Source: Patescibacteria group bacterium (GTDB taxonomy: Bacteria > Patescibacteriota > Patescibacteriia > Patescibacteriales > UBA12465). Taken from it: DNA of 64,000 nucleotides. The stretch spans positions 691 through 64,690 of the forward strand of contig JBAZTY010000001.1 of the NCBI GenBank assembly GCA_041661685.1, in the 5' to 3' direction. The notes under the pieces were generated by a model. The model did no database searches and was not told the DNA's origin. It was given only the letters and a program-made list of their open reading frames with translations. The position numbers and the translations under genes were made by a program. This document shows positions 1 to 40,874 of the stretch, one piece after another (position 1 is the stretch's first letter; every line of letters begins with the position of its first letter).

Positions 1-528
1 TGTTTTAGCAAAAACCGCAAAAGGCAGGCTGTTTAATTCTTCACCAACTTTGACTCTTATCGTAGAAGTTGGCAGTTCTTGCAAAATATTTAATTTATCG
101 TCTATTTCTTCTTTATTTTTTAACTGTTCCTTTACTCTTCCCATACCCTCATAAACCATAACTAGTTGAGTAATAGCTAATGGGAGCATTTGTGCCATAT
201 TGGCGTGTTCCTGATTTTTTAGTTGTTCCAGACCGACGGCTATCGCCTTTTTATGCATGGGAACCTCAGAAATATCCTTAAATTCCATTATTTTGTGGAC
301 ATTGGGAACTTCTTTAAAACAATTATTTTTAGCTATATATTCGTCCAATAGAGATATTTGCGCTTGGGCATATTCGAACTGAGGTTTTAATAGATTGGCT
401 GTATATGGCTCGGATTTTATAAAATCAACGTATTCAAAAAGAATATCAAAGCCTTTGACGGTACCTGAATTTTTCTGGTATTTATCCAGCAGAATCTCAA
501 TTTTTTGTTTGATTTCGTGGGATTTCAT
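1..528 (-). CDS. hypothetical protein, partial (N-terminal 176 aa; C-terminus lies beyond the window edge)
   Basis: The minus-strand frame is open from position 1 to the ATG at 526-528 (MKSHEIKQKIEILLDKYQKNSG...). I checked triplet by triplet and found no stop. It is absent from the supplied track because no stop lies in the window. No family recognised. Confidence 0.45.
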   Translation of the reverse strand, partial: MKSHEIKQKIEILLDKYQKNSGTVKGFDILFEYVDFIKSEPYTANLLKPQFEYAQAQISLLDEYIAKNNCFKEVPNVHKIMEFKDISEVPMHKKAIAVGLEQLKNQEHANMAQMLPLAITQLVMVYEGMGRVKEQLKNKEEIDDKLNILQELPTSTIRVKVGEELNSLPFAVFAKT

Positions 529-627
529 AATTATAGTTTGGCACAAATTAGAGTTAAGGGCAATTAGTTAATTTTATTGATTTTTTGGGTATTTTGTGGT
601 ATTTTTAAAATATAAAAAATAAATGTT

Positions 628-828
628 ATGAAAGTTAATAAAATACAATTTTGGCTTATTGTATGTATTTTTGTCCCAGTATATGTTATAGGATTACTTG
701 TTTTAATTTGGGATTATTTTTTAACCCATATTTCTGGGGATATAGCAAAAACAATTCTCGGAGTTTTATTATCAATACTTGTTATATATTCCCTTGAAAG
801 AGGGGGAAATAAAATAGTAAAATTTTAG
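628..828 (+). CDS. small membrane protein (2 predicted TM helices), orphan
   Basis: 66-aa ORF with two hydrophobic stretches (FWLIVCIFVPVYVIGLLVLIW and ILGVLLSILVIYS). First gene of the AT-rich same-strand cluster. Confidence 0.45.
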   Translation: MKVNKIQFWLIVCIFVPVYVIGLLVLIWDYFLTHISGDIAKTILGVLLSILVIYSLERGGNKIVKF

Positions 829-849
829 TCTATATTAAGCAAACTATTT

Positions 850-1479
850 ATGAATAAAATCAAAACATATTTTAAATATGTATTAACTTTTGGAGCCTTT
901 ATTATATCTGGCTCTTTCCTTATTTTTTGGGCTTATATTACTTTTTTTAACGGCCCAGGAGCAATTGTTCACGACGGGAGAGAAGAAATTGCACAAATGA
1001 AACTGGAAGCCTCAAAAGAATCTGATAAAAAAGTGGTTGATTATTATTCTACGATAGATAATGGATTATTTTCATTAACTTTTCCATCCCAACCAGTTTG
1101 TACGGAAAAAACTAACTTAATCGAAGAGATAAAGTTGATTTCTAATACATGTATTTTAAAAGAGGAGAATGATTCCCGCCAATATCTGATTAACTGGGGT
1201 TCTTATCCAGATAGCATAAAAACACATAGTCCAAAAGATATTTTAGAGCAGACTTTGAATGAAAAAATGAAAATTACTAATTTAGAAATTTTGAGCCAAA
1301 AATTTATTGAACAACAAAAATATTTAACTTTGGAATATAGTACTAAAGCGGTGGATGGTATAAAGGCTGATGGAAAAATTATTTTTGCCGGAGCTAGTAT
1401 ATATGATCTAGTTTTTATACGCTATGTGGACGATAAGAACACATCTGATGCATTTTTTCAGTCGTTTAATTTAAAATAA
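850..1479 (+). CDS. hypothetical membrane-anchored protein
   Basis: 209-aa ORF with an N-terminal TM helix (VLTFGAFIISGSFLIFWAYITFF) followed by a soluble domain. It starts 21 nt after the previous stop. No family recognised. Confidence 0.55.
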   Translation: MNKIKTYFKYVLTFGAFIISGSFLIFWAYITFFNGPGAIVHDGREEIAQMKLEASKESDKKVVDYYSTIDNGLFSLTFPSQPVCTEKTNLIEEIKLISNTCILKEENDSRQYLINWGSYPDSIKTHSPKDILEQTLNEKMKITNLEILSQKFIEQQKYLTLEYSTKAVDGIKADGKIIFAGASIYDLVFIRYVDDKNTSDAFFQSFNLK

Positions 1480-1487
1480 AAAAGAAT

Positions 1488-1739
1488 ATGAAAAAATTTC
1501 TAAAATATGAAGAATGGATAAAAAATAGTGAAAAAGCAAAAGAAATTAATAGTTTAATGGTAAGCATGTTTGTAAGCATGTCAAATGGGCTACCAAAAGA
1601 TGATAATTTAAAGAATTTAGATAAAATGATAAAGAATCTTTTTAAATTAAGAGTTAATTGGGCAAAAATGTTCTATAAAGTCTTTCCAAAAGAAGAAAGA
1701 GCGGATATATTTATAGGACCAAAAGAAGATAGAGAATAA
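1488..1739 (+). CDS. hypothetical small soluble protein
   Basis: 83-aa ORF starting 8 nt after the previous stop. Lys/Glu-rich and probably helical. No family recognised. Confidence 0.45.
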   Translation: MKKFLKYEEWIKNSEKAKEINSLMVSMFVSMSNGLPKDDNLKNLDKMIKNLFKLRVNWAKMFYKVFPKEERADIFIGPKEDRE

Positions 1740-1762
1740 AAAGGTATAAAAAATTTAAAAAT

Positions 1763-1990
1763 ATGGGTATCTTATTTACAATTTTAGGTGTTATTTCTAT
1801 TTTTAGATTATGGGAAAATCATATAGGTTTTGCTATATTTATGATATTAGTTACTTTATATCAGGCATCATCTCTTAATGAAATAAAAAAAGAAATGAGA
1901 GGACAAACCAACAAAGACAGGTGGCAGGGTGGTATTAATTTAGCTAGTTCTATAATCATTTTGGGTTTTTTAATTTATTCATTTTTTTAA
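1763..1990 (+). CDS. small membrane protein (2 predicted TM helices), orphan
   Basis: 75-aa ORF with hydrophobic N- and C-terminal helices (ILFTILGVISIF and SIIILGFLIYSFF) flanking a charged loop. Confidence 0.45.
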   Translation: MGILFTILGVISIFRLWENHIGFAIFMILVTLYQASSLNEIKKEMRGQTNKDRWQGGINLASSIIILGFLIYSFF

Positions 1991-2010
1991 AAATATAACA
2001 ATAAAAAAAT

Positions 2011-2601
2011 ATGGGATTTTTTTCATCTTCAATTGAGGAAAAGTTAGAAAAATTATATATAAGTATGTTTCAAAATATGGGAATGAGTATAAGTGATGCT
2101 CGTGCAACCGTAAGTCAAATGCTAGAAGATGCAAAAGAAAATGTTAGAAAAAATGGAGAAAGTCAAACATCCAAAGAGGCGATAGAATACTTTTTAACGG
2201 ATGAAAAATTTAGTAAAAAATTAGAAATATTAAGAGCGGATGGAGTGAAAGATGATGATATTAGATGGTGGCTAAAAATGCAACCATTGGAAAGACAAAT
2301 GATGTTAAAGATGGATGAATTAAACAAGACTGTCTTAATGATGAACTTAGTAGAAGAGGGAAAAGAAATGGATGAAGCAGAACGGCAAGTAAGAAAGTAT
2401 CATCCTGTTTTTGGCGACTCGTTAGATGAAAAAAATTCAAAAGGCCAAGATAGGCCTATCCCAGAAATGTTAAAAGATAGAATAAATATTTATATAGAGA
2501 ATAGAGTAAAATCAGACTTAGATCAATATAAAAAGGATATCGAAGAATCTTCAAGTTTTAATGCTCTAATCAGAAAAGAAGTTGTAGCTAAAAAATTGTA
2601 A
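2011..2601 (+). CDS. hypothetical protein
   Basis: 196-aa ORF, charged and helical, in the same strand cluster. No family recognised. Confidence 0.55.
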   Translation: MGFFSSSIEEKLEKLYISMFQNMGMSISDARATVSQMLEDAKENVRKNGESQTSKEAIEYFLTDEKFSKKLEILRADGVKDDDIRWWLKMQPLERQMMLKMDELNKTVLMMNLVEEGKEMDEAERQVRKYHPVFGDSLDEKNSKGQDRPIPEMLKDRINIYIENRVKSDLDQYKKDIEESSSFNALIRKEVVAKKL

Positions 2602-2630
2602 ATCATAAAAATATAAAAATATTTTAAGAT

Positions 2631-2828
2631 ATGAAAGACAGTAGTCGCGTTATTGCTACAAGAGAGTTATTATTACAACAAGGAGACAAGCCAGAGGAGG
2701 TTGAGGCGATACTTAATGTGATTAGAGCCCAAGAAAACACTGAAAAGAATGACTCTTTAAGGTCTTGGCTTGCTATTGTAATAAGTGGTTTAGCGATGGT
2801 TGTAAGCTTTGTGGCAATTTTTAAATAA
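2631..2828 (+). CDS. small tail-anchored membrane protein, orphan
   Basis: 65-aa ORF with a C-terminal hydrophobic helix (WLAIVISGLAMVVSFVAIF). An antisense ORF at 2624-2848 overlaps it; the plus strand is preferred because of operon context. Confidence 0.4.
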   Translation: MKDSSRVIATRELLLQQGDKPEEVEAILNVIRAQENTEKNDSLRSWLAIVISGLAMVVSFVAIFK

Positions 2829-2946
2829 TCGTTCCAAGTGCGTCCCACCCTCTCCGCTTAGTAAATGTTATTTTCTCATATTAATGGTTGATTTTTTGTT
2901 TTTTTTGTGATATTATCGACATATTATTACAAAATAGATTAATGAT

Positions 2947-3810
2947 ATGATAAAATTTGAAAATATTGAAAAGGATCGCGGTCGAGAAAATTTTAGAATA
3001 GAGCGCGTTCTTGACAAGGGGGTAGGACTAATGAATGAAGATGCTATCCTGGACAGTCCTGAAATTTTTGGCGCTTTTGACGGCGCGACCGGATTGGACA
3101 AATATATCGACCCGCAGGGGCGGACCGGCGGCTATTTGGCTTCCCAAACAGCTAAAGAGATTTTTTCTAGAAATGACGCTTCGCTGGTCGATTTAGCTAT
3201 ATCCGCCAACCGAAAAATAAGGGAAGAAATGATTGATAAGAAAATTGACGTTGATAAGAGGGCTAATCTCTGGTGCACGACTTTTGCCGTGGCCCGTCTG
3301 AAGGAAAAACAGCTAGAATGGGCGCAAATCAGCGATGCCTCCATTTTACTTATCTATAGAGACGGTTCTTTCAAAATACTGGGCGGAGATTATAGTTTTG
3401 ATCGACCATCTTTGGTGAAATGGAAAGAATTGTCGGACCAAGGGGAAACGGAAATTGGCAAAAAAATCCAAGATCAGCTTATTAAAGTGAGGGCAGGCGC
3501 GAATCAGAATTATGGAGTTTTAAACGGAGAAGAGAATATGATAAATTTTCTCAATAGCGGTTTAGAGCCGCTGGATAATGTAAAAGACATTTTGATATTT
3601 TCCGATGGTCTGCTGATACCCAAGACTGATCCCGAGGCTGCAGAAGATTTTTCCGCTATCGTTAAGTTATATTTAGAAGGCGGTTTGAATCGGGTCAAGG
3701 ATTATGTCCGAGATTTGGAAAGCAGCGACCCGGAGTGCAGGAAGTTTCCGCGCTTTAAAGAACATGACGATATGGCGGCGGTCGCGATATCTTTTAGTCC
3801 CTCGAAATAA
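2947..3810 (+). CDS. PP2C/PPM-family protein phosphatase-like protein
   Basis: Motifs resemble the PP2C fold: MNEDA, GAFDGATG (compare DGxGG), FSDGLL, and C-terminal EHDDMAAVAISF (compare DDxT.v). Composition returns to the window norm at this gene. Confidence 0.7.
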   Translation: MIKFENIEKDRGRENFRIERVLDKGVGLMNEDAILDSPEIFGAFDGATGLDKYIDPQGRTGGYLASQTAKEIFSRNDASLVDLAISANRKIREEMIDKKIDVDKRANLWCTTFAVARLKEKQLEWAQISDASILLIYRDGSFKILGGDYSFDRPSLVKWKELSDQGETEIGKKIQDQLIKVRAGANQNYGVLNGEENMINFLNSGLEPLDNVKDILIFSDGLLIPKTDPEAAEDFSAIVKLYLEGGLNRVKDYVRDLESSDPECRKFPRFKEHDDMAAVAISFSPSK

Positions 3811-3811
3811 A

Positions 3812-3835
3812 AAAGCCAATCCGGAGATTGGCTTT
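3812..3835. terminator. bidirectional rho-independent terminator between convergent genes
   Basis: Hairpin AAAGCCAATC-cgga-GATTGGCTTT. An A-run lies upstream and TTT downstream. It sits between the stops at 3810 (+) and 3843 (-). Confidence 0.6.
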
Positions 3836-3842
3836 AAGGGGG

Positions 3843-5357
3843 TTAGGCTACTAATTCTAGCCTCGTTTCCCAGATTTTTTTGATCTCGCGATTCCGTAGG
3901 TCAATAGAAGTAGTTTTGACGGAAGGAGATGACGAATGTCGGCAGAAGTCTTGGATGAAATATTTTTTGTATTCTTCAATAATTAACTTCTGGAGGCGCG
4001 GCTGGTCCTTGCACTGAATAGAGAAGTTAATCCACTCTTCATGGTCTTTGATTTTTGGAGCTAACAGCGCTAATAGCCTCTTGAAGGCAGGCGCGTCGCT
4101 TTTTATTATTAAGTTTCTGATTGAATCCAAACGAGCCTGGCGCTCTTTAATCGCGACTTGCAATCCTAGAGGGTCTTGGCGCTTATTCTTAAGCGGCCAA
4201 ACCGTGAGAGGGTCGAGATGCTGGGCAGGGAATTCTTTAGCCGTGAGTCTTAATCCAATCGGATTATGGCAATCAGACAGGAGATTCACCATGTCGATCA
4301 TGATATTCTCGGCGACCGTCGGGTAATAATGGATGCTTTTAATATATAGCAGGGCTGAGATTTTCATCGATTCTTGGCTGTTGTCAAGGGATATCGCTAA
4401 TCTCTGCTTATTAAGGATGACTTTTCTGATTTCCGGAGCGTTGAGTGTCGTTTCATCATATAATCTTTCCCAATCTCGGAAAGAAAGTTTCGCTCTTTCT
4501 AACTTAGCGGCGGCCAGAATAATGAATTTCTTGTCTCTGCAATTATTGCAGGTTTTTACAAGTATTTCAGGCGATATCTCGGCGTCTCTAAGCTTGTTCC
4601 AGCCGAGATTTTTTAGCCGGCTATTATGAAGTTCTACCTGGTATATTTTAAACCAGAAAGAAAAAGGACTTTTTTGTTTTTCTAGGATCGCGATGATCCT
4701 CGGTCTCATTAGGGATTTAGAGTTTAAGCGGCGGTACATCGATAATAATTCCTCGCTCGAGAACGAGTCCTTGATCTGCAGCAGGCACCTATACAAATAG
4801 GCGCGCCTATGGTTGCTGATACTCGTCAGTCTGGTCATAGCCAGCAGTTTTTCTTTATCATTCTTGGCTAGGCGTAAAGCCAGCTTATATAACTTAGCGT
4901 CGAACTCTTGGTTCAAGACAGTTATTATTTCCGGCCAAGCTTTAGCGACAATCTTCATTGTTTCGAGCACTGGTCTCTTTTCTTTTTCTTCCAAATATTC
5001 GAGCATCATTTGTTTCTCTTCAAAAGTCTTGGCGAATGTTATCATTACCCCGACCGCTAGAGGCCTGATTGCCTTATTGAAGCGGTAAGCTTTGAAGAAA
5101 TTAAGCCAGCCGATAAAGTCGCTAGCAATCTGGCTGAATACTGGTTTTAATTCATCATAGCGCTCTTTGGGCAAGCGGCAATATAATTGGCTTAATTCAG
5201 CCAGGGTTATATATTGTCTGGTTCCAAGAACGGCCATAATATTCTGTGAAAAAGTCGGTATGCCTAAGAGAACGATGAAGCTTTCTATCTTAGAAGCTAG
5301 GAATTTAGCGATTTTCCGATCATGGCCGGAAGTCTGCAGCATGCTTAAATTTTCCAT
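3843..5357 (-). CDS. hypothetical 504-aa all-helical protein with internal W/Y-containing repeats
   Basis: Long ORF with repeating units of roughly 45-50 aa (SPFSFWFKIYQVE...SPEILVK and KLSFRDWERLYDET...APEIRKV). No family recognised. All long plus-strand ORFs across it are antisense. Confidence 0.6.
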   Translation of the reverse strand: MENLSMLQTSGHDRKIAKFLASKIESFIVLLGIPTFSQNIMAVLGTRQYITLAELSQLYCRLPKERYDELKPVFSQIASDFIGWLNFFKAYRFNKAIRPLAVGVMITFAKTFEEKQMMLEYLEEKEKRPVLETMKIVAKAWPEIITVLNQEFDAKLYKLALRLAKNDKEKLLAMTRLTSISNHRRAYLYRCLLQIKDSFSSEELLSMYRRLNSKSLMRPRIIAILEKQKSPFSFWFKIYQVELHNSRLKNLGWNKLRDAEISPEILVKTCNNCRDKKFIILAAAKLERAKLSFRDWERLYDETTLNAPEIRKVILNKQRLAISLDNSQESMKISALLYIKSIHYYPTVAENIMIDMVNLLSDCHNPIGLRLTAKEFPAQHLDPLTVWPLKNKRQDPLGLQVAIKERQARLDSIRNLIIKSDAPAFKRLLALLAPKIKDHEEWINFSIQCKDQPRLQKLIIEEYKKYFIQDFCRHSSSPSVKTTSIDLRNREIKKIWETRLELVA

Positions 5358-5437
5358 TGTTATGTAGTTTTTATCGTTTATATTCGGTTTTTAAAGGACT
5401 TATTTGGTTTGCCAAATAAGGTATATTTGGTCAGAAT

Positions 5438-5467
5438 AACTTAGCATTTTTATTGATATTTTGTCAA
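5438..5467 (-). promoter_or_regulatory. sigma70-like promoter for the 504-aa gene
   Basis: Read on the minus strand: TTGACA-N18-TAAGTT, with TG at the extended -10 position (aTGcTAAGTT). A perfect 9-bp-stem palindrome (5399-5420, CTTATTTGG-tttg-CCAAATAAG) lies just downstream in the leader. Confidence 0.45.
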
Positions 5468-5480
5468 TAGAACAAAAAAA

Positions 5481-5500
5481 TACCCGGACAAATCCGGGTA
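5481..5500 (-). terminator. rho-independent terminator of the hemerythrin gene
   Basis: Hairpin TACCCGGA-caaa-TCCGGGTA. On the minus strand it is followed by a run of seven T (5474-5480). It lies 17 nt past the stop at 5517. Confidence 0.65.
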
Positions 5501-5516
5501 TTTTCTGTATTCGAGT

Positions 5517-5930
5517 TTATTTTAAACCGTTAGCGTTGAAATAGGCGGTATATTCCTTATCGGCGTTATTAATATGCCAGATCCACCAGTTATTTAAGAA
5601 GCTATTGATGGCAAACAGCGTCTTCTCGTTATTGTCGGCATCATACTCATTCTTCAAATCTTGGATTTTTTGACGATAGATATTGTGCATAGCGATATGC
5701 GCTTCCTCTTTCTCGTAATTATAGAGCGTGAAATAATGTTCTTCCGTGCTGAAATGATAATCCGCATAATCCAGCAGTTGTTTGAAGATCGGTTCGACGT
5801 CGACATTCTTGAATTTTTTTTCAGAGTAGAGAGTGAAGAGCTCATTGATGATGGCGATCAGCTTTTGGTGCTGCTCATCCAGCTCTTTGACGCCGACTGA
5901 GTATTCCTCGATCCAATTGATTATGGCCAT
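5517..5930 (-). CDS. bacteriohemerythrin (hemerythrin-like metal-binding protein)
   Basis: N-terminal W..EYSVGV..LDEQHQKL signature. Ligand-type residues are spaced as in hemerythrins: HFSTEEHYF, AHIAMH and WWIWHINNADKEY. Confidence 0.85.
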   Translation of the reverse strand: MAIINWIEEYSVGVKELDEQHQKLIAIINELFTLYSEKKFKNVDVEPIFKQLLDYADYHFSTEEHYFTLYNYEKEEAHIAMHNIYRQKIQDLKNEYDADNNEKTLFAINSFLNNWWIWHINNADKEYTAYFNANGLK

Positions 5931-6069
5931 ATTTTTGTATTTTAATCCTATGTTTCTTATAAATATTATAGCATGATTTGAGTAATGGTCATAATTGTCA
6001 GGTCGTAGCTGCCGGCGGTAATTTAGCTGAAAGAAAAGGCTATTAGCTGCGTAATAAATAAAAACAGTC

Positions 6070-6098
6070 TTGACAGTTAGTATTTTTAGGATAATAAT
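6070..6098 (+). promoter_or_regulatory. near-consensus sigma70-like promoter
   Basis: TTGACA (6070-6075), a 17-nt spacer, then AATAAT (6093-6098). Confidence 0.5.
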
Positions 6099-6116
6099 CT
6101 ACTTGTAAAATTAGAA

Positions 6117-6293
6117 ATTGCGGATGGATATTCGCCGACCTCGGCTCTAAATGATCACCGCTGCAATTGCGGAAAGTTGCTCTTCAAGGGGGATTTTAAA
6201 GGCCATATCGAGATCAAGTGCCTGCGTTGCGGGCAGATAAGGGATCTGTATGGGCCGGAAGAACGCGATTGTCGCATTAATAACCAAAGTTAA
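6117..6293 (+). CDS. phage Mu Com-like zinc-ribbon small protein; start codon unresolved (possible pseudogene)
   Basis: The frame open over 6090-6293 encodes ...NDHRCNCGKLLFKGDFKGHIEIKCLRCGQIRDLYGPEERDCRINNQS*. This resembles Mu Com (RCKNCNKLLFKADSFDHIEIRCPRCKR). The frame has no in-frame ATG, GTG or TTG; ATT at 6117 is the only plausible rare start. The ORF is below the size cutoff of the supplied track. Confidence 0.4.
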   Translation: MADGYSPTSALNDHRCNCGKLLFKGDFKGHIEIKCLRCGQIRDLYGPEERDCRINNQS

Positions 6294-6382
6294 AATCATG
6301 GCGCTATCATGCCTGAGTTTTGCATGGTATGATTAAATTAGATTTCGTGATGTAAAAAATGAATACAGAAGCTCCTTCTAGA

Positions 6383-6412
6383 AGCTCAGACAAGTGTTGT
6401 TTGGGCTTTTTT
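6383..6412 (+). terminator. rho-independent terminator after the Com-like ORF
   Basis: AGCTCAGAC-(7-nt loop)-GTTTGGGCT forms a 9-bp stem that includes two G-U pairs. It is followed by TTTTT. Confidence 0.5.
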
Positions 6413-6480
6413 GGTAATTTAGGCAGTTTAGAATAAATATAAAATTTACATATATTTTAAAAACATTAATCTAAAAGCTT

Positions 6481-39515: not shown

Positions 39516-40166
39516 TTAGGTTCTAGACTCATAGTCTTCATGAGTTGGCAGCCGCGAATTCTCAAATCTGATTATCGCTTCCCTTGTTAAGACTCTCTCA
39601 TTTTTATTCGTTGTTTCGGCAATAAAATCTTCTAGTATCCGCATAACGCGAGCGCGGAATGATTCTTGCCTTTGATCGACGTCTCGCGTGAGATGTTTTT
39701 TAGTGATAATCAGGCCGATAAAATGTCTTTCGTCGTTGAAGATGTCGTCGTCTAATCCGGCTGTTTTATGTGCGACATTTTTCATGATGCAGTCAGCATA
39801 AATTTTCGCTAAGTCTTCCGTTGAGAAAGTTCTGTCCATGCTTTCCGTTATCAATTCCAGGACAATCTCTCTTTTTTTTTCATTCGAGAGATAGACTCTG
39901 ATATCGAGGAGACATTTATTCAAAGAGGGAGCATCTTTAATCAGCGCTTTAACATAATTATCAAATTCAAAACTTTCTTCCCATAACTTGCGCAAGGGAA
40001 GAGCGTGGAAAAGCGCCAGAATGCAATAGAAGCTGTCATTTTCTGCTAGTCTTCTTTTTATATCGTTGACTATGAGCTTAAGGCTTATAGTCCGATAAAG
40101 ACACCATAGAAGAGAACAGGCTATAAGCGCGGCGCCGGCAAAATAGTAAGCCATTAGAGTTTTCAT
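39516..40166 (-). CDS. hypothetical membrane-anchored protein
   Basis: 216-aa ORF with an N-terminal TM helix (LMAYYFAGAALIACSLLWCL). No family recognised. Confidence 0.5.
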   Translation of the reverse strand: MKTLMAYYFAGAALIACSLLWCLYRTISLKLIVNDIKRRLAENDSFYCILALFHALPLRKLWEESFEFDNYVKALIKDAPSLNKCLLDIRVYLSNEKKREIVLELITESMDRTFSTEDLAKIYADCIMKNVAHKTAGLDDDIFNDERHFIGLIITKKHLTRDVDQRQESFRARVMRILEDFIAETTNKNERVLTREAIIRFENSRLPTHEDYESRT

Positions 40167-40271
40167 GGTAGTTATCTTTAAAGTTAGACACTGGAAGCAA
40201 CTTATTTTTAAAAGAGCTATTATTAACTTTATATATTACAATAATATTAAATTTCAGTCAATGATAATAAA

Positions 40272-40296
40272 AAAAGCTTCTTGGGGGAAGCTTTTT
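40272..40296 (-). terminator. rho-independent terminator
   Basis: AAAAGCTTC-ttggggg-GAAGCTTTT. On the minus strand it is followed by a T-run. Confidence 0.6.
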
Positions 40297-40328
40297 CTTT
40301 TAACTGTTCAGTTTTAATCACCAATCAC

Positions 40329-40874
40329 TTAATCACTGCCTCCGAAAAGCATTTTCAGAGGTATGCGATAGGGTCGGAATTTGCATAACTCTTTCCAGCG
40401 ATTAAATTTAATTATCGTGCCGGAAAAAGTCCAGCGATCAGTCCGGGCCACCGCGCCTCTGATCGCCAGAGAAGTCGTGACCGCAAGACTGATGATAGTG
40501 ATGAAAAGCCAAAGATTCTGTTTGTGTATGGTTTCTTTTTTTTCAGCTATCTCTTGATTCAGAGCCTCAATTTTCTTCGTATCGTAATAATGATTTAAAG
40601 AAAATATTTGGTCTCCGTCAGCTTTGATTTCCGGCCAAGCGCCTTCGGGAATATTCAGGTTGCTAAGCGCGGAATTATCGAATTTTTTTATGCCTCGGGT
40701 AAAGGTTAGCCTGTAATCATTTTTATAATGATTAAGCACATACTCTGAATAGTAGTCGCCTTGTTTTATGACAATTACTTCTTCGGTAGTCTTGGCGCTG
40801 GCATAGCTAGTAATAGCTATAAGCAACAGCATCGATAAGATCATCTTTTTCATTGAAATTTTTTTATTAGACAA
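40329..40874 (-). CDS. hypothetical secreted or membrane protein
   Basis: 181-aa ORF with a signal peptide (MILSMLLLIAITSYASA) and a C-proximal TM helix (LWLFITIISLAVTTSLAI). No family recognised. Confidence 0.5.
   Translation of the reverse strand: MSNKKISMKKMILSMLLLIAITSYASAKTTEEVIVIKQGDYYSEYVLNHYKNDYRLTFTRGIKKFDNSALSNLNIPEGAWPEIKADGDQIFSLNHYYDTKKIEALNQEIAEKKETIHKQNLWLFITIISLAVTTSLAIRGAVARTDRWTFSGTIIKFNRWKELCKFRPYRIPLKMLFGGSD

Follow-up and report, generated by a model that had tools for sequence, protein, structure and literature searches.

The window analysed here is a stretch of 64,000 nucleotides (nt) from a Patescibacteria group bacterium (GenBank assembly GCA_041661685.1, contig JBAZTY010000001.1, positions 691 to 64,690). 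Near its left end it has an AT-rich block with six small open reading frames (ORF1 to ORF6) on one strand. We conclude that this block belongs to a mobile element of a known kind and is not a new self-contained six-gene system. Positions 1-2857 very probably represent 2.9 kb at the right-hand end of an integrated element that measures about 6.2 kb, with ORF1-6 as its cargo arm. In window orientation the order is a tRNA-Ser 3' fragment, a large serine recombinase (LSR, - strand), a replication protein (Rep, -), a gene for a 307-residue protein here called up (-), a divergent region, ORF1-6 (+) and a 27-nt motif with a second tRNA-Ser fragment. Sibling elements share the backbone genes and, in the tRNA-Ser type, the end motif, carry other cargo and lie beside tRNA genes, and a related genome is without the insertion.

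The part of the element to the left of the window was recovered from an independent, MEGAHIT-style assembly. A locus in it, L062, has 100% identity with window 1-10528 (in reverse orientation) and lies at 175-196 kb of a 369,724-bp contig with both flanks present. The up gene, cut by the window edge, is complete in L062 and is followed by Rep and LSR (Table 1). A first-pass annotation, made from the letters of the window, had assigned the divergent partial gene to no family. Its product belongs to 91 proteins (P0168 and 90 relatives) of about 307-317 amino acids (aa) with a conserved C-terminal domain that matches no described family. The ratio of non-synonymous to synonymous substitution rates (dN/dS, by Nei-Gojobori) was 0.09 and 0.05 for the backbone genes, with 0.09 for up against its homolog in the sibling locus L063. 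The LSR gene is the terminal gene in L062, L030, L065, L068 and L069.

The right boundary of the element is marked by the 27-nt motif, present in a single copy in the window, directly 3' of ORF6. In its final 15 nt (2843-2857) the motif matches the 3' acceptor/T-stem strand of tRNA-Ser. The identical 27-mer was found 3' of the last cargo gene in L063, L065/L066 and L067; a version with two mismatches lies 3' of ORF3 in L001/L010 and of the last small gene in L002, and one with four mismatches ends the L030 element at 9061-9087. Immediately past the motif the loci diverge into unrelated flanks. Four of the five flanks shown (L001, L002, L063 and L065, not the window) start with a hairpin and a T-run which, in our own reading, would fit the original downstream region of a tRNA gene, as expected. 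For comparison, the 3' end of the tRNA in L066 reads ...AATCCCTCCCTCTCCGCA. An alignment of seven junctions, of which three are intact tRNAs and four are fragments, showed the reverse-complement core GCGG[AG]GAG..GGGA in all of them and a divergence 16-17 nt away from the 3' end of the tRNA. The window's genome has a second tRNA-Ser fragment, degenerate in sequence (TCCCGAACTCCCCGC in window orientation), at the LSR end (L062 13857-13872). The element between the two tRNA-Ser 3' fragments measures about 6.2 kb (L062 7672 to ~13868), and L030 has the same layout across 7.1 kb, from tRNA-Ser to motif. A generic direct-repeat search missed these attachment (att) sites, whose shared tRNA segment of ~15 nt is imperfect; they were revealed by comparing the motif across loci.

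The empty site was found in a related genome (L070), with flanks of 82-86% nucleotide identity. L070 keeps the hemerythrin gene (92% aa identity) and the gene for a protein of about 505 aa (78% aa identity) and then joins 53 nt of the LSR end (L070 12223-12275 = L062 13854-13906). The 7.1 kb that are missing (L062 6724-13853) comprise PP2C, the motif, the six ORFs, up, Rep and LSR. The locus thus combines a recombinase at its end, tRNA and partial-tRNA flanks, an empty site and a deviant composition, by which tRNA-linked islands are recognised. The first-pass description of the block as compositionally foreign and accessory is supported; the block lies on a mobile element that the related genome is without. 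L070 also contains further tRNA-Ser fragments and a truncated tRNA-Ser at the contig end, which points to a tRNA-Ser integration hotspot with tandem islands.

To the left of the LSR gene, L062 13933-20924 is an AT-rich block in which every gene faces the LSR end. It encodes a 142-aa transmembrane (TM) protein, a 95-aa protein, HD_4, a 118-aa protein, DUF2779, proteins of 295 and 448 aa and a D12 methylase. By inspection of the sequences, for which no tool gave a match, the 295-aa protein was read as PD-(D/E)XK-like and the 448-aa protein as HNH-like. The 53-nt end sequence of this block is shared with the L070 island. The block is probably the cargo of a second, later element that pushed the LSR element away from its tRNA.

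The up-Rep-LSR trio recurs in at least seven other Patescibacteria loci beside tRNA-Ser or tRNA-Gln genes, and in six sibling loci an intact tRNA-Ser or tRNA-Gln abuts the LSR gene. Small TM proteins and an ORF5 homolog are the cargo in L030, which has tRNA-Ser(CGA) at the LSR end. L063/L064, with tRNA-Ser(CGA), bear a 55-aa gene and a five-gene branched-chain amino-acid ATP-binding cassette (ABC) transporter, and L065/L066, with tRNA-Ser, an AAA_15/AAA_21 ATPase, DUF4202 and a short-chain dehydrogenase. Hypoth_Ymh, an EcoRI methylase, GmrSD_N+HNH, SIR2_2 and DUF87 (HerA-like) were found in L067 next to tRNA-Ser(GGA). Two siblings have tRNA-Gln: L068 carries zinc-ribbon proteins and a Y1 transposase, L069 a dehydrogenase, a GDSL lipase and others. 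The up gene and the 27-nt motif form the exact borders of the cargo of L067, a compact defence set at 2913-8867.

L062 was 83-84% identical in nucleotides to L063 and to L067 over ~3.9 kb, in the backbone only. On the LSR side this similarity stops 43-50 nt before the LSR stop codon; on the other side it stops in the up/ORF1 intergenic region, at L062 9962 (window 567) for L063 and at L062 9917 (window 612) for L067. As judged from these alignments, the backbone is conserved and the cargo is swapped between elements. L065 and L066 are 99.8% identical for 12.6 kb of cargo and backbone and diverge at ~12590, 17 nt inside the 3' end of the tRNA-Ser by the LSR gene. L066 runs on as an intact tRNA-Ser(CGA) and L065 as other DNA, with a tRNA-Ser(TGA) ~190 nt further on. 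This break may reflect a recombinase-mediated rearrangement or an alternative integration site, and gives an indirect hint of excision and re-integration.

According to the first-pass annotation, ORF1-6 formed one co-transcribed, self-contained accessory system of an immunity, toxin, holin-like or phage-exclusion type. Six ORFs on the same strand do lie where they were placed, with gaps of 8-29 nt; this spacing, the alternation of membrane and soluble products and the defence cargo of sibling elements favour a single system. However, the relatives do not keep the genes together as a block. L001 and L010, with 83% nucleotide identity to window 774-1727, contain the C-terminus of ORF1, ORF2 (82% aa identity) and ORF3 (74% aa identity) and then the end motif, with no ORF4-6. 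In L002/L003 an up homolog is divergent to an ORF2 homolog (55% aa identity), which is followed by four unrelated small genes (three for membrane proteins) and the motif, with no ORF1 or ORF3-6. In L030, up is linked to an ORF5 homolog whose partners are other small TM proteins. The gene content of these loci means that the six ORFs are not one unit; ORF1-3 and ORF4-6 would rather be two separately exchangeable cargo cassettes. The linkage to the backbone is seen in two independent cases, up with ORF2 and up with ORF5. In addition, no PADLOC, Pfam or PHROG model matched the six proteins, and we consider a single six-gene system very unlikely. Of the functions proposed, none has a model that matches these products, and the part that stays plausible is exclusion or defence, because of the defence genes in siblings: SIR2 with HerA-like DUF87, GmrSD/HNH and a restriction-modification methylase in L067, and the AAA_15/21 ATPase in L065.

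Less probable again is a cryptic prophage of the inovirus or plectrovirus type with single-stranded DNA, in which the small membrane proteins would be coat or assembly proteins. The element shares with the Inoviridae/Plectroviridae prophages (Roux et al. 2019, PMC6813254) a Rep of PF23343, the family of ORF2/G2P of plectroviruses and inoviruses (also phrog_3419), the size of 6-7 kb and the integration next to tRNAs or integrases, and it encodes short TM proteins. Inoviruses have also been reported to reach the candidate phyla radiation (CPR; PMC6813254). However, their sole universal marker, the pI morphogenesis ATPase of FtsK-HerA type (PMC6813254), is absent: no Walker A motif is present in any of the nine proteins of the element, and no ATPase match was obtained in Pfam or PHROGs. 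Siblings with the same backbone hold ordinary cargo, such as the ABC transporter or defence genes, in the 'structural' slot. Inovirus-type proteins of 30-90 aa have a single TM segment; ORF6 has one, ORF1 two and ORF4 three, and sibling elements are without such genes. The element was not present in viral contig collections: the up and ORF5 families were absent from IMG/VR, and the ORF5 family also from the INPHARED phages, in searches of these sets.

It is highly improbable that the element ends at window 567-612 and that the backbone inserted into an older unrelated island, or into host DNA, represented by the six ORFs. The similarity between backbones does stop there, and the GC of the cargo (0.24-0.31) is below that of the backbone (0.33-0.38). 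Against this, the variable region has the same tRNA-like motif of 27 nt at its end in seven elements whose cargo and flanks are unrelated, distant loci show a linkage of up to ORF2 and to ORF5, and the empty site in L070 is without cargo and without backbone. An assembly or binning artefact, with a chimeric contig end from a low-GC organism, has next to no probability, although the island bears the first locus tags of the contig in the NCBI metagenome-assembled genome (MAG; WC719_00005-00035) and the closest ORF2 relatives lie on uniformly low-GC contigs, since the identical sequence inside the contig of an independent assembly excludes a contig-end chimera and the junctions bear the expected att-type sequences.

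An integron cassette array was also considered and rejected: the gaps of 8-29 nt contain no repeated site, the motif occurs once in the window and the LSR is not an intI tyrosine integrase. Among the loci, a motif repeated after genes was seen only in L013, from a Buchananbacteria MAG. In this locus (6586-7758 and 7198-9975) three successive cassette genes, including an ORF5 homolog, are each followed by a 30-nt motif (GTTCCAACRTTGYMCCAYARCGC...), and a 35-nt hairpin-plus-TATAAT repeat is present in three copies. The L013 motif has GTTCCAA...CCCAC in common with the tRNA-Ser-type end motif, and the arrangement resembles a cassette array.

The composition of the block was compared with the rest of the window. 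At 529-2900 the G+C content (GC) is 0.283, against 0.46 +/- 0.026 (minimum 0.392) in the other windows of 2372 nt, and the tetranucleotide L1 distance is 0.64 against 0.21 +/- 0.03 elsewhere in the window. GC at third codon positions (GC3) ranges from 0.14 to 0.32 across the six ORFs and from 0.51 to 0.60 in twelve long window genes. The composition shift had first been noted from 7 G+C in 60 nt at 601-660 and 40 in 60 nt at 10021-10080; both counts are exact, and the GC and tetranucleotide analyses agree with them. The return to the window norm, put near 2900-2950, was likewise borne out, as the edge at ~2900 coincides with the conserved end motif. To the left the boundary lies outside the window as proposed, with backbone and AT-rich DNA continuing in L062, and the AT-rich region is much larger than had been stated. 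It extends at least 10.4 kb past the left end of the window, GC of 0.26-0.39 persists for at least 7 kb beyond the recombinase, and the six-ORF block is the right-most 2.4 kb of a region of at least 13 kb.

The six ORFs (WC719_00010 to WC719_00035, at the contig start in the NCBI MAG) are separated by 21, 8, 23, 20 and 29 nt from ORF1 to ORF6. On one strand, 95.4% of 628-2828 is taken up by ORFs of 60 aa or longer, whereas 500 first-order Markov simulations gave a mean of 9.6% and a maximum of 41%; the tiling of open frames exceeds chance. GC decreases from the first to the second to the third codon position (GC1>GC2>GC3) in five of the six ORFs, ORF6 among them, and this pattern is absent from an antisense ORF at 2624-2848 that overlaps ORF6. 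In the divergent intergenic region, promoter-like sites at 509-537 (+) and 557-530 (-) are consensus matches only. The window contains no tRNA and no Rfam family.

Table 1. Features of the element from the LSR end to the distal motif. Positions refer to the window unless L062 is named, and strands to window orientation.
Feature	Position	Strand	Description
LSR	L062 12373-13911	-	512 aa; Resolvase + Recombinase + Zn_ribbon_recom; phrog_95, E=4.6e-81
Rep, rolling-circle (HUH)	L062 11238-12185	-	PF23343 REP_ORF2-G2P; phrog_3419, E=5.7e-23
up, complete gene	L062 10001-10924		followed by Rep and LSR
up, partial gene	1..528	-	N-terminal 176 codons of 307 aa (WC719_00005, P0168); full product by profile recovery
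Intergenic region	529..627	.	AT-rich, divergent; border of conserved backbone and variable cargo; promoter-like hexamers on both strands
ORF1	628..828	+	66 aa; two hydrophobic segments, residues 11-27 and 39-55; opens sub-block ORF1-3
ORF2	850..1479	+	209 aa; N-terminal membrane anchor and alpha+beta domain
ORF3	1488..1739	+	83 aa; soluble, lysine/glutamate-rich, no hydrophobic segment; closes sub-block ORF1-3
ORF4	1763..1990	+	75 aa; small membrane protein, three hydrophobic segments; opens sub-block ORF4-6
ORF5	2011..2601	+	196 aa; large uncharacterised all-alpha family; no hydrophobic segment
ORF6	2631..2828	+	65 aa; tail-anchored peptide, C-terminal TM helix at residues 47-63; last cargo gene
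Element-distal att motif	2831-2857	+	27 nt, GTTCCAAGTGCGTCCCACCCTCTCCGC; directly 3' of ORF6; right boundary of the element

Hydrophobic segments were assigned by Kyte-Doolittle. The alternation of membrane and soluble products read in the first pass was confirmed for five of the ORFs; in ORF4 three segments were found in place of two. The ORFs had also been taken for orphans without a family. This stands for the profile libraries, which matched none of them, and falls for ORF5, with its at least 788 relatives, and for ORF1-3, which have close homologs. The C-terminal 17 residues of ORF1 are 94% identical in L001 (dN/dS 0.08, from 17 aligned codons only), and the ORF1 cluster holds a second member, P0002. 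ORF2 has the homologs P0013 (82% identity) and P0014 (55% identity), with dN/dS of 0.15 and 0.26, respectively. ORF3 is 74% identical to the gene 3' of the ORF2 homolog in L001 and L010 (dN/dS 0.15). The proposed dN/dS check thus gave 0.08-0.26, and these alignments indicate that ORF1-3 are under purifying selection. The coding support for ORF4 consists of the ORF tiling and purine-rich first codon positions. An AlphaFold2 (AF2) model of ORF2 was unreliable, with a predicted local distance difference test score (pLDDT) of 47.9, and was left out of the fold search. Exact look-up of the ORF1 and ORF2 proteins returned no contigs, so that the locus was reached via P0168 alone, and an alignment search with ORF2 against genome and metagenome contigs returned no loci. 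A degenerate DNA pattern for LFSLTFPSQP recovered one more close relative only, L010.

ORF5 belongs to a large family. A profile built from four sequences was scored against 1.84 billion representative (cluster-level) proteins and matched at least 788 proteins at E<=1e-3; with the stricter cut-offs of E<=1e-10 and E<=1e-30 the numbers were 554 and 203. Most members are stand-alone proteins of ~200 aa with an N-terminal MGxFS, the motifs EGVxDEDIRWWWN, HPxYGDP and DRPLPxELKxRIN, and SSFNALxRxE near the C-terminus. No member matched in Pfam or NCBIfam. The AF2 model of ORF5 is confident (pLDDT 95.9; predicted template modelling score, pTM, 0.87) and had no Foldseek match in PDB or BFVD, the two sets searched. 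A PspA/ESCRT-III-like assignment, suggested by the N-terminal MGxFS only, was dropped, as there was no Pfam match and the predicted fold is a compact helical bundle. Occasionally the ORF5 domain is fused to a GT2 glycosyltransferase or, in Planctomycetes, to a TM helix and SHD1 domains (P0086, P0133, P0016, P0017). These fusions suggest that ORF5 is a cytoplasmic, membrane-proximal domain.

With an alignment of 11 sequences, 49 genomic loci of ORF5 were found, in many Patescibacteria (CPR) classes and also in Planctomycetota, Methylomirabilis, Nitrospinota, Atribacterota, Omnitrophica, Chloroflexota and Methanoperedens. The neighbours of ORF5 are not conserved between these loci, and the homologs occupy local AT-rich dips. 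A tRNA gene lies at most 1.5 kb upstream of the ORF5 homolog in 11 of the 24 loci scanned, and an LSR gene within 4-6 kb in five loci. A TM protein was encoded next to the gene on the same strand for 26 of 50 ORF5 homologs, compared with 67 of 314 control genes (odds ratio 4.0, p=1.5e-5).

From these results we propose the following course of events. The LSR would integrate and excise the element at the T-arm/acceptor region of tRNA-Ser. The 3' end of its gene would overlap the att site, since ORF calls run into the tRNA in L013, L030, L034 and L043. Rep would replicate the excised circle, or nick it for transfer, and the 307-aa protein may be a regulator or an accessory DNA-binding factor. 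The cargo would be transcribed as an operon from the divergent intergenic region toward the element end. In the case of ORF4-6, the predicted cytoplasmic all-alpha ORF5 could be held at the membrane by its small partners ORF4 and ORF6. For the cargo as a whole an envelope-associated accessory or exclusion function is possible and is put forward tentatively, because four of the six products are of membrane type, the ORF5 family has a membrane-protein neighbourhood and the siblings are rich in defence cargo.

A wider combination, which we hold to be unlikely, is that the LSR-Rep-up elements are phylum-wide undescribed shuttles of a tycheposon-like kind and that ORF5 with a TM or tail-anchored partner is a new membrane-associated module. 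In the first case, Rep could be the 'very different relaxase' that a survey of type IV secretion systems (T4SS) called possibly missing (PMC12102498). The ORF5 module may serve, for example, in phage or competitor exclusion and may have been spread by tRNA-targeting elements in Patescibacteria, Planctomycetota, Methylomirabilota, Atribacterota and some archaea.

Several points weigh against the reading of the block as the cargo arm of an integrated LSR element. The L070 indel includes PP2C and exceeds the motif-delimited element by 0.9 kb. From its host-like GC and its position beyond the motif, PP2C is more likely to be a host gene specific to the lineage than a part of the element. At the LSR end of L062 there is no intact tRNA, only the degenerate fragment of 15-16 nt, so that a second island may have displaced the element, or the element may be immobilised. 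In L063 the end motif matches the local tRNA imperfectly and does not fix the exact crossover point. An excised circle or attP junction was not observed, and the element is known from assembled contigs alone. The function of the cargo is pure conjecture on our part, which no model match backs. ORF1-6 and the fragment at 1-528 gave nothing significant in Pfam, PHROGs, PADLOC or NCBIfam, and thus no profile match to a housekeeping family for ORF1-6 either; PADLOC-DB v2 returned no matches at E<=0.1 for ORF1-6 and the up fragment. Neither ORF4 nor ORF6 had a homolog among the matches listed, which is weak evidence as the query joined ORF1, 3, 4, 5 and 6 and only ORF5 relatives were listed. The sole match of ORF6, a weak one (E=0.015), is a tail-anchored protein encoded immediately downstream of the ORF5 homolog in L016, a Planctomycetota MAG. 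Finally, the TM calls and the calls of neighbouring genes in the ORF5 loci are crude.

Other features were noted in the window. In a second AT-rich patch, at 11000-12270 (GC 0.29-0.38), the frames of an HTH_3 protein (11221-11682) and a Fic/DOC protein (11673-12269) overlap; this pair looks toxin-antitoxin-like and is probably another acquired module. At 39516-40874 (-), with a GC of ~0.35, two ORFs of 216 and 181 aa are without a Pfam match. An ice-binding-family repeat protein (600 aa) and the adjacent sortase at 6481-9031 are absent from L070, which keeps the VTT-domain and hemerythrin genes; by this comparison the segment appears as another strain-variable insertion. The protein of about 505 aa that is retained in L070 is encoded at 3843-5357 (-), where it has 504 aa, and had no match in Pfam, PHROGs or NCBIfam. 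Its gene is convergent with PP2C, and the two have a common terminator hairpin at 3812-3835.

Patescibacteria are ultra-small bacteria with tiny genomes that are hardly accessible to genetics, and little is known of how they exchange genes. The element family, with its LSR, its 27-nt end motif and its tRNA-Ser and tRNA-Gln targets, offers a concrete route for accessory genes in these bacteria, by which defence systems, transporters and small envelope proteins would be moved. The pairs of LSR and att site are candidates for genetic tools. Recognising such cargo would allow small 'orphan' membrane proteins to be sorted into mobile and core sets. ORF5, from a large family outside Pfam and NCBIfam with a confident model and no structural match, is a clean target for work on structure and function. 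The precisely delimited LSR/Rep element family in Patescibacteria and the ORF5 family are by-products of moderate interest.

In full-text literature searches no description of such elements in Patescibacteria was found; the coverage of these searches is incomplete, and the result is an absence of evidence only. Similar elements are the tycheposons of Prochlorococcus (Hackl et al., bioRxiv 10.1101/2020.12.28.424599). They likewise have a site-specific integrase at one end, a small replication module and interchangeable cargo that includes nutrient-uptake operons and defence-type genes. They also use tRNA genes as integration sites, are flanked by a complete tRNA and, on the opposite side, a partial one, and build up in tandem into islands. 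In contrast to the LSR found here, 910 of 937 tycheposons use a tyrosine recombinase, and their replication relies on a primase, helicase or polymerase, whereas the present element has a HUH rolling-circle Rep; it adds the conserved 307-aa gene, and its hosts are Patescibacteria. To file the element as a tycheposon was therefore considered and rejected: the architecture is analogous and the gene families differ by Pfam type, the tycheposon profiles themselves not having been compared.

Integrative and mobilisable elements (IMEs) are small cargo-bearing elements with serine or tyrosine integrases, and their relaxases are often relatives of Rep proteins of the rolling-circle type. According to PMC5704250 and PMC5357655, the IMEs of Firmicutes encode their own integration and excision machinery and use the mating pore of another element for transfer; the integration part is shared here. 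Unlike in IMEs, no origin of transfer (oriT), coupling protein or MOB-class relaxase was identified in the present element, for which no MOB typing was made. By analogy, its Rep could act as a relaxase. The T4SS clusters of Patescibacteria are mostly without relaxases (PMC12102498), which makes a mobilisation of the element speculative.

With classical tRNA-linked islands, as defined by the Islander concept (PMC4383910), the element shares the regenerated target tRNA with the displaced 3' fragment at the far end, the foreign composition and the absence from relatives. Such islands usually have tyrosine integrases and longer identity blocks, whereas the element described here has an LSR and a shared tRNA segment of ~15-17 nt.

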